Notes under the pieces: model-generated
Databases searched by the model: none
The model's input: the letters and a program-made list of their open reading frames with translations, nothing else
What the model was told of the DNA's origin: nothing
Origin: an uncultured virus (IMG/VR IMGVR_UViG_3300037743_000227)
Lineage: Duplodnaviria > Heunggongvirae > Uroviricota > Caudoviricetes
DNA: 20,000 bases
Strand: one strand, 5' to 3'
IMG/VR virus record: IMGVR_UViG_3300037743_000227
Position numbers and translations under genes: made by a program
Shown here: positions 4,683 to 16,683 of the stretch, piece by piece
How the letters are laid out: each line of letters begins with the position of its first letter
Numbering within the stretch: the stretch's first letter is position 1

Positions 4683-4963
4683 ACCAGCCCACCGCCGAGG
4701 ACATCGCCGCCCTGCGTGCCGACGGCGACCTCCACGACTACCTGCTCGCCCTCACCGGCCGCACCCCCGCCCCCAAGCCGGCCCCGCTCGCTGCGGCTCC
4801 GGATCCCGGCTATCGGATCGCGCACACCGGCGGCTGGCCCATCGGCACCGCCGCCACCGGGCCGACCCCGACGCACGGCCGCTGCACCTGCCCGAAGTGC
4901 GCGCAAGCCGACGTCGTCCAACTGCCCCAGCAGCACCAGCACCAGACAGGAGAAGCCGCATGA
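4679..4963 (+). CDS. Hypothetical protein
   Basis: ATGA coupling at both ends; CTCPKC motif. Confidence 0.7.
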
Positions 4964-6414
4964 CCAGCATCGAATGGACCGAGCAAACCTGGAACCCGAC
5001 CACCGGCTGCGACCGCATCAGCCCCGGCTGCGATAACTGCTACGCCCTGACGATGGCCAAGCGGCTGAAGGGCATGGGGCAGGCCAAGTACCAGAACGAC
5101 GGCGACGCCCGCACCTCCGGACCCGGCTTCGGACTCACCGTCCACCCCGACGTCCTCACGGATCCGCTGCGCTGGAAGAAGCCCCGCCGGATCTTTGTGA
5201 ATTCAATGTCCGACCTGTTCCATGCCCGGGTACCGGACGAGTTCATCGCCCGCGTGTGGCAGGTCATGGGAGTCACTCCCCAGCACACTTTCCAGATCCT
5301 CACCAAGCGTGCCAAGCGTATGGAGTCCTGGACGAACCGCTGGTACTCCGGTGAGATCCCCGAGCCCTACGACGTCCGCTCGATCCCCGGATACGAGGGC
5401 TACAGCGTGACGACCCACGGGGAAGTCCTCGGTAAGCGCTCCGACACCCGCGGCGGCTTGAAGCTCGACGCCGGCGAGCAGGGGCACCTCCGCGCGCCGC
5501 TCTACCGAGCCGCAGGGCACTCGCCGAAGCGCGAACTCGTGCACCGCCTCGTTCTCACAGCCTTCGTCCGGCCGCCCCGCCTGGGAGAGCAGGCGTGCCA
5601 CCGGAACGGTGACCCGTCCGATAACCGCCTCTCCAACCTCTACTGGGGCACCCAGGGCGACAACTGGCGCGACCGCCTGACCCACGGGAACGGCCGGTCG
5701 TACCAGAAGCTCTCCGAGCAACAGGTCTCGCAGATAAGGGAGCGCCACGCAGCGGGCCAATCCGCCTACTCCATGGCCAAGGACTACGGAGTCTCGGACA
5801 CCCAGATCCGAAACATCGTGATGAATCGCCAGTGGGCGACCGCGCACCTGGTCAAAGTGCCGACCCCGGCTCCGGCCCGCGTCGTGCTGGACAACTGCTG
5901 GTTGGGCACGAGCGTCGAGAGCCAGAAGTACGCCGACATCCGTATACCCGCCCTGCTGGGGGCCCCGGCCGCCGTCCGTTTCCTGTCGTGCGAACCCCTC
6001 CTCGGCCCGGTCCGCCTCACCCATCAGGACCACACGGACCACGAGCGGGACTGGGACGGCGACTGGATCTGCCTCGGCTGCTCCACGGACGAGGAGCATG
6101 TCCCCTGGCGGACCGTTGACCGCCCCAGTCTCGACATCGACTGGGTCATCATCGGCGGCGAATCCGGTCCCGGCGCCCGGCCGTTCGATCCCGAGTGGGC
6201 GGCCGACCTGATCAGCGACGCCCGCCGAGTCGGCGCGGCCCCGTTCGTGAAGCAGCTCGGATCGGCTTGGGCCCGCGACTACACCGTGGCCGGGAAGAGC
6301 GTGGCCGCCCATGGCGACACCAAGGGCGGCAAACCCGAGCACTGGCCGGCCGACCTCCGAGTCCGCGAGTACCCCGTCACCGCTGGAACCGGGCTCCGAG
6401 GTGAGGCCGCCTGA
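4960..6414 (+). CDS. DUF5131 / phage Gp37/Gp68 family protein with in-frame HNH endonuclease insertion
   Basis: [71 protein letters not shown]; insertion between LTKR and NxWLG motifs. Confidence 0.9.
5365..5850 (+). mobile_element. NUMOD4-like + HNH + HTH homing-endonuclease-like module within DUF5131 (boundaries approximate)
   Basis: [74 protein letters not shown]. Confidence 0.8.
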
Positions 6415-11597: not shown

Positions 11598-12385
11598 CCG
11601 ACAGCAGCGCGCTCGGCGACCGCATGAAACGCTACGAGGCCACGACTCGCACGCTCCTGCCCCGCCGCACCTTCTCCATTTGCCGAGTGGACGGCCGCGC
11701 CTTCCACTCCTACCTTCGCGGAGCAGCGAAGCCCTTCGACGAGCAGTTCATGGCAGACATGGACGCCGTCGCCGAAGCCCTCTGCACCGAGATCGCCGGA
11801 GCCCGGTTCGCCTACACCCAGTCCGACGAGATCAGCATCCTGGCCACGGACTTCGGCAGCCACAACACCGAGCCCTGGTTCGGTGGCGTCATCGCCAAGC
11901 AACTCTCCATCGCCGCATCCCTGGCGACGGCCGTCCTCAACGAACGCCGCCCCGGCCGCGCCCTGTTCGATGCCCGCGTGTTCACGATCTCCGATCCGGT
12001 GGAGGTGGCGAACTACTTTCTGTGGCGGCAGAGGGACTGCGTCCGCAACTCGATCTCGATGGCCGCGCAAGCCCACTTCTCCCACCGCCGTCTGCACGGC
12101 GTGAACAGCGGCGGCATGCAGGAACTCCTCCACGCGGAGGCTGGGGTGAACTGGAACGACTACCCCGACGGCTGCAAGCGTGGACGCGTCACCGTGCGGC
12201 GGGTCGGGGAGCGGGAGACGACGTTCACGGACAAGCGGACCAGCACGCTGAAGACCGTGGTGGCGATGCGGTCGTGGTGGGAGAGCAGCGCGGCGCCGCA
12301 CTTCACGACGGAGCCGGAGGGGTTCCTCGCCGAGATGGTGCCGCCGCTGCCCGTGCTCGGCGGCTTCACGTCCGTGGCATCCTGA
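11594..12385 (+). CDS. tRNA(His) guanylyltransferase Thg1-like protein (3'-5' nucleotidyltransferase)
   Basis: RMKRYE, RVDGRAFH, YTQSDEIS, WFGG..K, FDAR, YFLWRQRDCVRNS, GVNWNDYP..KRG; catalytic Asp residues present. Confidence 0.95.
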   Translation: MTDSSALGDRMKRYEATTRTLLPRRTFSICRVDGRAFHSYLRGAAKPFDEQFMADMDAVAEALCTEIAGARFAYTQSDEISILATDFGSHNTEPWFGGVIAKQLSIAASLATAVLNERRPGRALFDARVFTISDPVEVANYFLWRQRDCVRNSISMAAQAHFSHRRLHGVNSGGMQELLHAEAGVNWNDYPDGCKRGRVTVRRVGERETTFTDKRTSTLKTVVAMRSWWESSAAPHFTTEPEGFLAEMVPPLPVLGGFTSVAS

Positions 12386-13237: not shown

Positions 13238-13372
13238 TCAAAGCTCCGTCAGTCGGTACGGCGAGGGCAGCGGTGGCAGGGGCACGCCGAGCGCATCACC
13301 CAGCAGGGCGCGCGCCACGGCCTCACGCTCCCACACCGGCCGGCCGGGCGGCATCGACAGCAGGGCGGTCAG
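13238..13372 (-). pseudogene. Probable 3' gene remnant directly after the HNH gene
   Basis: High-GC3 frame LTALLSMPPGRPVWEREAVARALLGDALGVPLPPLPSPYRLTEL* lacking a clear RBS. Confidence 0.45.
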
Positions 13373-14073
13373 GTGCCGCCCTCTCGTTTCTCTCGCCAAT
13401 ACTTTTGGCGGTCTCGTTCGCGCCTACACTCGCGGCAATGGCGCCTGTTTCCGTACTGGTAGGTATTCTCCGCCGTGAAGCGGTGGCCGTTCTTGCAGAC
13501 TTCGATTGGGAGTCGGGGTGACGTCTTACGCTCTCTCTGCTGCTCCCTCGCCCGGATGCACTCTCTACAGTGCCTGCCCTTTCCGTCGGGGCGCAGGTAG
13601 GTATTTTCCTCCGTGAAAGGGTGGCCGTGAACGCATGCCGCCTTGGACGCGGCGGTTAGATGTGAGCGATGCTGGTTCTCACGCGGCGTGACGGGCTCCA
13701 GGTGCTGCGGGTTGACGCAACGGCGGTGCAAGCAGGTGCTGCCGCCCAGGCAGGACGTGTCACCGTTGTGGCATGCGTGATCGATCCAGGCGCCTTCGGG
13801 TATCGGCCCGAAGGCAATCTCGTATGCCACGCGGTGGATGGGCTTCGAGGCTCCCTTTACGCTGACGTAGCCATACCCCTCCTTTGAGATTCGCCCAGTC
13901 CAATGGATGCAGCCGTTAGGCTGCGGAGCCATCTTCGCTTGCATGCGCTTTAGCACTGAAGCCTTTTGTTGATCCCACCAGTCCTCGTAGCAGCGCGGGC
14001 AGCGACCACGGTTGAGCTTCGGTCGGTGTTCGCCACAGTCGCTGCAATATCCCGGAGTAGCGGGCCTAGCCAT
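13369..14073 (-). CDS. HNH homing-type endonuclease with Zn-binding repeats
   Basis: GCIHWTG..GYG..IHRVAYE..IDHAC..CVNPQHLEPVTPREN; two CxxGHxFTxENTY..CREC repeats; visibly more AT-rich codons. Confidence 0.9.
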   Translation of the reverse strand: MARPATPGYCSDCGEHRPKLNRGRCPRCYEDWWDQQKASVLKRMQAKMAPQPNGCIHWTGRISKEGYGYVSVKGASKPIHRVAYEIAFGPIPEGAWIDHACHNGDTSCLGGSTCLHRRCVNPQHLEPVTPRENQHRSHLTAASKAACVHGHPFTEENTYLRPDGKGRHCRECIRAREQQRERKTSPRLPIEVCKNGHRFTAENTYQYGNRRHCRECRRERDRQKYWREKREGGT

Positions 14074-14648: not shown

Positions 14649-15131
14649 CTACTTCGGCACTCTGAAGTGCTGGTGCCGCTTGGCGAGGGCACCTTCGCGG
14701 ACCAGTTCGCTGAGGGCATGGAATGCGGTGAGTGGTGAGACGCCGAACTGTTGCGCGACTTTGGCGCTTGGAAGGTAGGTGTCGGGCTTGTAGTCGCCTC
14801 GCGCGAGTGCTGAGCGCATAGCCTCTCGAACCGCTTCCCGCTCGGCCGTGTCGTCGTACCTACGCGCCTTCTGTGGCCATCCTCGCCCGAGTTGGTGGTA
14901 GCCGTTGTATAGCGGGCGCTCGTCCTTCATGGCTGCGGCTTCGGCCTTCAGGGCGTCGTCGCGACTGTCGAGCCAGGTGATCTCGCGGCGCGTGACGTGA
15001 TGCCACCAAGCCTTGTCGCCCGCATGCTCCTTGAAGCGCTCGTTCGGGTAGGTGCTTATGCCGACATAGAGCAAGGTGCCCTTGTCGCTGTAGAGGCGGT
15101 AGAGCGCGGTGCGTTCGGGTGCTTCGGGCAT
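14649..15131 (-). CDS. GIY-YIG nuclease-like domain fused to GntR-type wHTH
   Basis: TALYRLY..LLYVGIS..RFKEH..AEAAAMKDERPLYN, then GDYKPDTYLPS..VAQQFGVS..ALSELVREG; AGGAG RBS. Confidence 0.85.
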   Translation of the reverse strand: MPEAPERTALYRLYSDKGTLLYVGISTYPNERFKEHAGDKAWWHHVTRREITWLDSRDDALKAEAAAMKDERPLYNGYHQLGRGWPQKARRYDDTAEREAVREAMRSALARGDYKPDTYLPSAKVAQQFGVSPLTAFHALSELVREGALAKRHQHFRVPK

Positions 15132-15228
15132 GCCGCTCCTAACTGAGCGTGTGGCGGCGACCACTCTCACTTGCTCGCAACTGTATTAGTAAATCCGCAC
15201 AGTGGCTAGTCCGTCACGGCGCCACGAA

Positions 15229-15254
15229 GCCCCCGACTCGTCCGAGCCGGGGGC
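15229..15254 (-). terminator. Terminator-like hairpin after GntR gene
   Basis: GCCCCCG..CTCG-tc-CGAG..CGGGGGC about 15 bp past the stop. Confidence 0.6.
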
Positions 15255-15268
15255 AGATTGGGTGGCGC

Positions 15269-16030
15269 CTAGAAGTCGTACTGCAGCTCGTACATGTGGC
15301 CAGCCTTCGCCATGATCTCTGCTTGGATCGGACGGTCGTCGGTGCTGAACGTGATGCGGAACGTGCGCAGGACCGGGAGCTTGGTCGGCATCTGGAGGGC
15401 CGAGTACTGCTCCGGCGTCGGCAACTGTGCCGAAACTCTGTCCTCGCAGCGGATGCTCGGGTAGCCGAGGTCTTCCAGCACCCGGCCTGATCCGCCTCGA
15501 AGGAGGTGGTTGTTCATCAACTTCGTGCCTGCCGCAATGTCGAGTGGGAGGTACACCTCGACAAGTTCGCACGGCTCGCCGTCGAGTGAGAGCACTTGTC
15601 GGCGCAGTAGCGCGAGTTCGCTCTTGTCGAGCTGGAAGGCCTCCCGCACGGCGGCTGGCGGAACGACCTTGCCCACATGCAGCAACTTCGCCTTCGCGGT
15701 CATGCCGCGCTTCTCGTTCTCCGCCAGCCACTGGTACTTCTCGCCCCGTAGCGCCGGGTTCTTGTAGGCGGCCGGGCGCATGGTCAACTGCCGGTGGTGG
15801 CGCACGATCACGCCGCGCCCCTGCTCGGCGATCACCAGGCGCTCGCTCGTGAGCGTCGCGATTGCGGCCCGGACGGTGTTCGATGCGACGCCGAACTGCG
15901 ACACGAGCTGCCGCAGGGACGGCAACTTCTCGCCCGGTTCAAAGTCGCCGTTGATGATCCGGTCGCGGATGTAGGCGGCGATCTGCTCCTGAGAGGACCA
16001 GACACTGCCGTCGGGTCGTTCATCTGCCAT
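15269..16030 (-). CDS. GntR (HutC/UTRA) transcriptional repressor, KorSA-like
   Basis: QIAAYIRDRIINGDFEPGEKLPS..FGVASNTVRAAI..QGRGVIV plus C-terminal UTRA domain. Confidence 0.92.
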   Translation of the reverse strand: MADERPDGSVWSSQEQIAAYIRDRIINGDFEPGEKLPSLRQLVSQFGVASNTVRAAIATLTSERLVIAEQGRGVIVRHHRQLTMRPAAYKNPALRGEKYQWLAENEKRGMTAKAKLLHVGKVVPPAAVREAFQLDKSELALLRRQVLSLDGEPCELVEVYLPLDIAAGTKLMNNHLLRGGSGRVLEDLGYPSIRCEDRVSAQLPTPEQYSALQMPTKLPVLRTFRITFSTDDRPIQAEIMAKAGHMYELQYDF

Positions 16031-16032
16031 GG

Positions 16033-16569
16033 TCAGCTCACCTTCATCGAGTAGTTGAGCTGCCCGATGCGGCCGGGGGCCACGCTGACGAACACCTCGT
16101 AGGGCTGGCCGGAGCCGTCTTTGATTGTTCGGCGGAGAGTGAGCACCCACTCGCTGGAGCCTTCGATCGCGAGAGCCTCCCGCTCCGCGCCTGTGCCCGG
16201 ACGCGTCCGAACGTTCTCGATGACTTCCGCTGGCTCGTATCCCAGGCTTGCGAGCAGCGTCGGTGCACCGCCCTTCACCTTGCCCGGGGCGGCCAGCGCC
16301 GTGCCGGCGGCCACGGCCGGCGGCCAGTAGGAGTCCGCGAGCTCGACGGGGATGTCGTCGAGGAGGATCAGCCGGCGTCGCAAAATCACGGGCTGGCCTT
16401 CGGGTAGGTCCAGTGCGGAGGCCACCTCGTCGGGAGCGGCGGTTTCGCCCGCGAACAGGATTCGCTGCGTTCCGGTGCGCCCCTGCGTCGCAGCCTCTTT
16501 GCCCCAGGCGTCACCCTGGTTGGGGCGGATGTAGGGCGCTGAGGCGCCAGTCCAGTGGGCGTCCGTCAC
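16033..16569 (-). CDS. Stand-alone UTRA-domain protein (no HTH)
   Basis: VILRRRLILLDDIPVELADSYWP..GGAPTLLASLGY..ENVRTRP; GGAGG RBS before GTG at 16569. Confidence 0.85.
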   Translation of the reverse strand: MTDAHWTGASAPYIRPNQGDAWGKEAATQGRTGTQRILFAGETAAPDEVASALDLPEGQPVILRRRLILLDDIPVELADSYWPPAVAAGTALAAPGKVKGGAPTLLASLGYEPAEVIENVRTRPGTGAEREALAIEGSSEWVLTLRRTIKDGSGQPYEVFVSVAPGRIGQLNYSMKVS

Positions 16570-16683
16570 GCGCACCTCCGTCGGTCGTCGACTCCTTCAT
16601 CTGTATTGAACACCTTGCCAACGATAAGCCCAGTTCAGGTGCCTCCGGGGAGCGGATGAGAGTGATTGACGCCTGAGCAACTG

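Follow-up and report, generated by a model that had tools for sequence, protein, structure and literature searches.

The window analysed here, a 20,000-nucleotide stretch of an uncultured virus record that comprises 76,160 bases at 68% GC, carries on its plus strand an open reading frame that begins with ATG at 4960, ends with a stop codon at 6412-6414 and forms a single uninterrupted frame of 484 amino acids (aa). The gene lies in the phage replication region, after DnaC-like and DnaB genes. Pfam matches DUF5131 in two stretches of the protein, on either side of an insert (E = 4.8e-81). A preliminary description of this DNA had proposed an in-frame module within the variable loop of a DUF5131 protein, which is borne out by the open 484-aa frame and by the splitting of DUF5131 around HNH_3 and HTH_38. 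The features of the gene are listed below; homologues that lack the insert are termed empty alleles, and those that have it are termed carriers, of types A to C as defined with the scored set.

4960..6414, plus strand: DUF5131 gene (Gp37/Gp68, radical-SAM superfamily) with in-frame endonuclease; 484 aa; AlphaFold pLDDT 89.7, pTM 0.85
4960..5232, plus strand: N-terminal host part of the recipient type (aa 1-91), with Cx6CxxC and DLFH
5233..5310, plus strand: putatively co-converted left host flank, aa 92-117, with QILTKR at its end; the left crossover probably lies around aa 92-99
5311..5898, plus strand: 196-aa cassette replacing the variable loop (aa 118-313); type A length is 193-197 aa; 85% identical to carrier P0003
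5359..5535, plus strand: NUMOD4-like beta module (aa 134-192), alignable with the N-terminus of I-HmuI; Y148 and G154 invariant
5536..5673, plus strand: HNH nuclease core (aa 193-238), HNH_3; six residues invariant in 67 of 67 type A/B carriers
5704..5835, plus strand: helix-turn-helix (HTH), aa 249-292, modelled as three helices; its recognition helix is SDTQIRN
5893..5907, plus strand: predicted target in altered form, N-C-W-L-G in place of the N-V-W-L-G of empty alleles

The host part is a member of DUF5131: the 484-aa protein scores 272 bits against PF07505, above the cut-off, and both the three-Cys motif and the barrel fold are present. DUF5131 is a radical-SAM group in RadicalSAM.org, according to the accessible portion of its description (PMC9477430), and the literature searched gave no function for it. 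The cysteines of Cx6CxxC (C17, C24 and C27) are invariant, and DLFH, GGESG and KQ are also kept in the fusion, in agreement with the earlier statement that the host motifs are retained. The distance from LTKR to the W of WLG is 196 aa in the window gene vs 13-77 aa (median 42) in 299 empty alleles; as read from this alignment, which had been suggested as a way to fix the boundaries, the cassette is a replacement of the recipient's loop and not an addition to it. A contig from a separate study is identical over 5074-6138, both junctions included (0 differences), and the fusion is therefore not an assembly artefact. The nearest named empty alleles come from Streptomyces, which makes a Streptomyces phage the likely source.

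The insert contains an intact I-HmuI-like NUMOD4-HNH-HTH module that spans aa ~134-292, and the domain content first noticed from the letters alone reappears in family and structure searches. HNH_3 matches aa 193-235 with 24.3 bits, slightly below the Pfam cut-off of 24.8, HTH_38 matches aa 247-279 weakly, and the PHROGs HNH endonuclease phrog_59 matches with E = 7e-35. Pfam NUMOD4 itself matches just 3 of 65 aligned members; the NUMOD4-like reading is supported by I-HmuI (PDB 1U3E), the closest solved relative of the insert both by sequence (E = 6.8e-7) and by fold (E = 2.3e-7).

In the AlphaFold model of the fusion, the linker at aa 295-303 is of low confidence, and the strands and helices that flank the loop agree with those in the model of an empty allele, so that the insertion appears, in these predictions, to be structurally tolerated by the DUF5131 fold. 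The best structural match of the empty-allele model is spore photoproduct lyase (Z 8.4, marginal; rmsd 3.8; 186 aligned); the host barrel has no clear Foldseek match. These models lend something to one alternative, a domesticated fusion in which a DNA-binding or nicking domain serves the host enzyme and has spread by ordinary recombination, with the changes at the 3' junction as interface adaptation: a pTM of 0.85 suggests a defined domain arrangement, and the best fold match is to a DNA-acting radical-SAM enzyme; DUF5131 may itself act on DNA.

Other genes of the window include a replication-initiator-like gene at 1374-2186, in which positions 1670-1796 have iteron-like 42-nt direct repeats and palindromes and which precedes the DnaC-like and DnaB genes; two more HNH proteins, at 415-1347 on the plus strand and 13369-14073 on the minus strand, in positions unrelated to the fused HNH; a phage-encoded Thg1-like tRNA-His guanylyltransferase at ~11684-12385 on the plus strand, in a 76-kb record in which ARAGORN finds no tRNA genes; and a GIY-YIG domain fused to a GntR HTH at 14649-16575 on the minus strand, adjoining a GntR-UTRA regulator and a stand-alone UTRA gene.

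Splicing and alternative expression

It is assumed that a homing endonuclease within a gene must be carried by an intron or intein if the host protein is to be spared. Intein families were absent from 65 members searched with Pfam and from NCBIfam results; neither family nor fold searches matched a HINT domain, the loop being filled by the I-HmuI-like fold; none of 67 carriers has a His-Asn-nucleophile junction, and no N-terminal nucleophile at the insert start is conserved among them. The insert was rejected as an intein on these grounds. It was also rejected as a group I/II intron: Rfam intron models gave no match at E <= 5, the insert shows no folding excess (z -1.3 to +1.7), and the whole insert is coding, with third positions that vary freely at both junctions. 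These model searches, proposed in the preliminary description, uphold its view that the insert lacks both a HINT domain and the marks of an intron.

Two further routes by which the module could be expressed apart from the host protein were considered and set aside. Translation of a free nuclease from an internal start would call for signals that are missing here, as no ribosome-binding site with a start codon is conserved across carriers and no stop follows the module. A hidden reading frame in another sense frame is interrupted by stops in both such frames in every carrier, with 6 and 4 in the window gene.

Removal of the insert from RNA or protein by an unrecognised mechanism could be argued from the 3' junction, where Cys, Ser or Thr occupies the N or V position of the bordering motif in 51 of 67 carriers and recalls the +1 residue of inteins. 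However, Asn or Gln precedes such a residue in only 18 of the 67, and Cys would be a natural replacement of Val that changes the first two bases of the codon. Together with the lack of His-Asn-nucleophile junctions, a conserved N-terminal nucleophile, HINT and intron-model matches and folding excess reported above, and with the free third positions at both junctions, this makes cryptic splicing very improbable.

The family of fusions and its history

We found more than 100 DUF5131-endonuclease fusions, with source labels from three bacterial phyla (Actinomycetes, Myxococcales and Clostridia). With aa 125-312 as the query, we obtained 62 proteins out of 497 candidates, every one a DUF5131 fusion (one being the window's own cluster), and short free-standing relatives of the nuclease are merely 26-57% identical. 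The corresponding search with aa 1-125 gave 7,989 relatives, and the best 120 of these comprise 117 empty alleles, 2 carriers and 1 unscorable protein. A DNA pattern of HNH plus helix identified 25 loci, which divide into 20 DUF5131 fusions with open frames (several of them duplicates, some cut at contig ends) and 5 chance matches in a Bacteroidota gene. After deduplication the scored set held 39 type A carriers (window-like, loop of 193-197 aa), 28 of type B (195-245 aa), 2 of type C (a different helix) and 299 empty alleles, these last sampled by similarity to three carriers; rows in which a script could not detect the anchors, amounting to 22 loci and a few proteins, were left out. A later exhaustive search yielded 52 further fusions among 143 new proteins.

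Conservation of the nuclease across this set is pronounced at the residues expected to matter. H195, H214, N222, N226, W229 and N235 are invariant in all 67 type A/B carriers, and the recognition-helix residues S279, T281, Q282 and N285 occur in all 39 type A carriers and in 26-27 of the 28 type B carriers, the pattern S-x-T-Q-x-x-N being fixed in the former and nearly so in the latter. The same helix pattern is found in 49 of 52 fusions vs 4 of 91 non-fusion matches and 0 of 68 short free-standing relatives. An invariant DNA-reading surface in phages of unrelated hosts would imply a common target, most obviously the DUF5131 gene. The position aligned with an Asp of I-HmuI, which we take to be a metal ligand, is Cys or Arg in the fusions, as it also is in 35 of the 68 free-standing relatives; the nuclease of the fusions is thus likely, but not certain, to be active. 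Between the window gene and its nearest DNA carrier, pN is 0.06 and pS 0.64, and over ten DNA copies the HNH mean is pS 0.70 and pN 0.21; since pS is about 0.6 even between the closest DNA carriers, near saturation, no very recent transfer has been caught. A few copies have decayed, by clean in-frame loss of the HTH (P0062, P0063 and P0184) or by truncation after it (P0326 and P0299), as would be expected from a homing life cycle.

Near-saturated synonymous distances, the Cys or Arg at one presumed metal-ligand position and a high background of mosaicism would also suit a former homing element that is now mostly passive, hitchhiking by background recombination while the nuclease fold is kept for folding of the loop. 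A passive element, however, would not be expected to keep surface catalytic and DNA-reading residues invariant across hosts, nor to have a bordering motif that almost never reverts though NVWL is the family norm, and we regard this explanation as decidedly unlikely.

Two peculiarities of individual carriers were seen in passing. Many type B copies (e.g. P0043, P0046, L003 and L091) have a ~40-aa CxxC...YCSxxC zinc-finger-like module within the NUMOD4 part, and at L088:78-665 the DUF5131 N-terminus is present as a short second copy, directly upstream of the carrier gene and in a different frame.

In the window gene, aa 1-91 are 96% identical to the empty allele P0064 and 58% to P0003, the carrier with the closest insert (85% identical), while aa 92-104 are identical to P0003 at 12 of 13 positions vs 4-7 of 13 for the five closest empty alleles shown. 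WQ at aa 100-101 occurs in 36 of 39 type A carriers vs 7 of 299 empty alleles. The sequence is again recipient-like from aa 317 (aa 317-345 match empty alleles at 26 of 29 positions), and the right crossover likely falls at aa 314-316. The mobile unit is asymmetric, taking ~20 host codons on the left and ending almost at once on the right, and the insert has no terminal repeats or target-site duplication. A co-conversion tract in the flank had been proposed earlier from A/T-ending codons; the tract finds support in the protein sequence (WQ), while the codon argument did not hold. GC3 in aa 77-127 is 41/51 vs 225/252 in the remaining host part (Fisher p = 0.10), the insert itself has a host-like GC3 (160/181), and the loop falls below the GC3 of its own host in 14 of 17 carriers but also in 113 of 184 empty alleles. 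We rejected codon bias as a sign of a foreign tract.

The insert tree unites the type A carriers in a single clade (support 99), yet the host tree, built from the distal host parts of 362 rows, requires 30 changes to accommodate them. A single clade is rejected for 16 type A carriers among 23 nearest empty alleles (AU p = 1e-10; 0 of 200 bootstrap trees), and insert identities do not correlate with N-terminal identities (rho 0.07). The N and C halves of DUF5131 are themselves only weakly correlated (rho 0.15); these genes recombine freely regardless, so tree incongruence alone is no proof of drive. The comparison of host and insert trees does speak against an ancestral fusion with congruent trees, as the trees disagree and empty alleles are abundant. 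A patchy distribution, incongruence with the host gene and the presence of empty alleles are the marks by which an I-HmuI-like homing endonuclease is recognised, and all are present here. One joint in run X2 that might have been an empty allele in the window's own phage population derives from another, more distant gene and was discarded.

Carrier loci do not share a neighbourhood that would suggest a common role for the fusion: the 64 ORFs scanned (of 93 candidates) at 18 carrier loci contain no common neighbour and include assorted replication and methylase genes. This and the HTH-less or truncated copies count against domestication, to which the intact frames of all DNA copies seen and the upstream WQ.MG change, which could be an interface, would be congenial. 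The second reading offered in the preliminary description, a domesticated fusion, has accordingly lost ground to its first, a homing element tolerated as a loop.

The motif bordering the insert

To describe the 3' junction, we scored a motif directly 3' of the loop as N-[VAILM]-[WH]-[LIMV]. It is intact in 281 of 299 empty alleles vs 0 of 67 type A/B carriers; among 18 left-out empty alleles 10 are canonical by eye, which lowers the share of empty alleles with the motif from 94% to about 92%, and about 6-8% of them also lack it. The motif is the strongest outlier of 192 four-column host windows; the host protein shows no general decay, as 72 conserved columns have a median retention of 0.94. 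At the DNA level, AAYGTN(TGG|CAY)NTNGG is found in 142 of 184 empty alleles vs 0 of 18 type A/B carriers, and the form of this predicted site with the W codon is absent from the phage's own 76 kb.

Because the motif was defined ahead of the results of the exhaustive search, the new fusions provide an out-of-sample test, in which it is kept in 2 of 49. These 49 are the 52 further fusions less 2 exact duplicates and 1 without the segment; 47 were scored by script and 2 by eye, one of the script readings had a wrong anchor but is non-canonical either way, and 2 of the 49 are >80% identical to earlier rows. The exceptions are P0273, which reads NLWV with a Leu codon that cannot match the DNA consensus, and P0367, which reads NVWL and has a diverged helix. 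In all there are 50 distinct motif variants, 84 of 114 with a single departure, and carriers that retain N alter V, W or L, and vice versa. If the positions changed independently, ~22 intact copies would be expected among the 114, compared with the 2 seen, in a count that ignores relatedness. The changes in the motif did not all arise independently; on the insert tree there are ~7 changes per motif position, with 3 supported independent pairs only, which leaves the sign test underpowered (p = 0.25).

Judged from the sequences, motif loss is the pattern predicted by self-immunity of a homing nuclease. As the motif borders the insert, a structural cause of the changes is possible, and in a domesticated fusion they would be adaptation at the domain interface. 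An interface, however, would favour one solution, and what is found instead is 50 variants in which at least one position is hit; type C fusions, which occupy the same loop, retain NVWL. For these reasons, and those given above, we consider domestication unlikely, and we return to the homing element as the preferred reading, for which empty alleles, incongruent histories, the conserved nuclease and the apparent target escape at the 3' junction argue together.

The type C fusions (n = 2; P0101 and L186:1501-2925) have another helix, keep the motif and read LSKR upstream, where LTKR stands in 295 of 299 empty alleles, which hints at a candidate second target at this place. In P0101, L186:1501-2925 and P0367, the same DUF5131 loop holds HNH nucleases of other lineages, whose recognition helices differ, and NVWL is kept in all three.

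A proposed homing cycle and related systems

What sits in the variable loop is an intact I-HmuI-like HNH endonuclease in the frame of the host gene, and we think it probable that it acts as a homing endonuclease that is never spliced out. We propose that the fusion is translated whole, with the host barrel folding around the loop and the nuclease folding as its own domain, as in the AlphaFold model. When a carrier and a phage with an empty allele share one cell, the fused HNH would nick the empty allele within or next to the codons AAY GTN TGG NTN GG (N-V-W-L-G), of which it would recognise mostly the first two positions of each codon, and repair would copy the cassette from the carrier. The right crossover would be immediate, in WLG, and the left one would skip the recipient's non-homologous loop and land in the conserved DLFH-LTKR block, so that the recipient loop is replaced and ~20 upstream codons are co-converted. 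The predicted target lies beside the insert and is uninterrupted by it, and a carrier would therefore be safe only with N, V, W or L changed. Tolerance of wobble positions is described for I-AniI in the available part of PMC3943268, and it would mean that escape needs an amino-acid change; silent changes giving no protection, many different substitutions in an otherwise conserved motif would result.

The wider claim, to which we incline by only a little, is that such an endonuclease spreads from one bacterial phylum to another as a lasting domain of the protein it targets, without splicing or a separate ORF, replacing the loop and forcing the loss of N-V-W-L, that the loop is a hotspot for at least two nuclease lineages with different targets, and that the cut site can be predicted from sequence.

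Known systems share parts of this cycle. The ShiLan domain and the Pacc40 insertion in mycobacteriophage DNA methylases (PMC11855218) place an HNH homing element in a dispensable phage gene whose frame stays open, with no detectable splicing and a patchy distribution, as the window fusion seems to do from its sequence. There, however, the HNH has an out-of-frame ORF of its own, and what the host frame gains is a floppy loop whose fixed site lies between two codons, whereas the DUF5131 nuclease is in the host frame, is predicted to fold as a domain and replaces a variable loop, and its predicted target is escaped by substitution and not interrupted. A hidden HNH of the ShiLan type was rejected for the window gene, since the HNH is in the host frame and the other two sense frames are those with 6 and 4 stops. 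Methylases of F-cluster phages such as Taj_79, in the text available from PMC9957025, have a lone in-frame LAGLIDADG without intein or intron that is predicted to be a separate domain, as here; nine sequences are treated, one clan is not rejected and inheritance is apparently vertical. The DUF5131 fusions differ in being HNH, in numbering more than 100, in rejecting monophyly and in their target-escape signature.

The T4 endonucleases MobE and Seg, in the accessible parts of PMC2790892 and PMC2988022, resemble the proposed cycle in having a cleavage site apart from the insertion site, immunity by polymorphism in conserved coding sequence and co-conversion of flanks; for MobE, immunity by polymorphism beside a conserved codon block was proposed (PMC2790892). 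Their genes are free-standing and lie hundreds to thousands of bases away from the cut, whereas the fused endonuclease would sit within the gene predicted to be its target, at a distance of ~20 codons from the site. The HNH nickase I-HmuI shares the NUMOD4-HNH-HTH architecture of the insert, but its gene lies in a group I intron and its product is a free protein. Inteins with HNH, in the consulted portion of bioRxiv 10.1101/2025.01.02.630785, also place HNH in frame in a phage protein, and the DUF5131 fusion differs from them in having neither a HINT splicing domain nor splice-junction residues. No published description of HNH in DUF5131 was found in the literature searched, largely open-access papers, and nothing resembling the element appeared in the consulted portions of PMC10448857 and the intein preprint.

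Published splice-free exceptions are thus few, namely the out-of-frame HNH and the apparently vertical in-frame LAGLIDADG, and the DUF5131 family seems to home between distant phages in the form of a fused domain. If so, a selfish element would drive amino-acid change at conserved positions of a host enzyme and leave a target scar that can be read from sequence (NVWL vs NCWL). Such fusion would be a route for DNA-binding and nuclease domains into enzymes, and, as a warning, it can be mistaken for a functional partnership.

Some free-standing HNH genes were also recorded. L067 and the Gordonia hit H1 proved to be coincidental neighbours and not split genes. A scan for the surroundings of P0343 and P0359 gave 35 more distant loci, and no DUF5131 was found among the ORFs tested there. 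P0343, P0359 and P0265 are free-standing HNH proteins near the fused clade, two of them with the S-D-T-Q helix, and are possible sources or external homers. The Gordonia phage EnalisNailo (L001, MK820641.1, genes 63 and 66) has an empty DUF5131 with NVWL intact and a free-standing HNH ~325 bp downstream.
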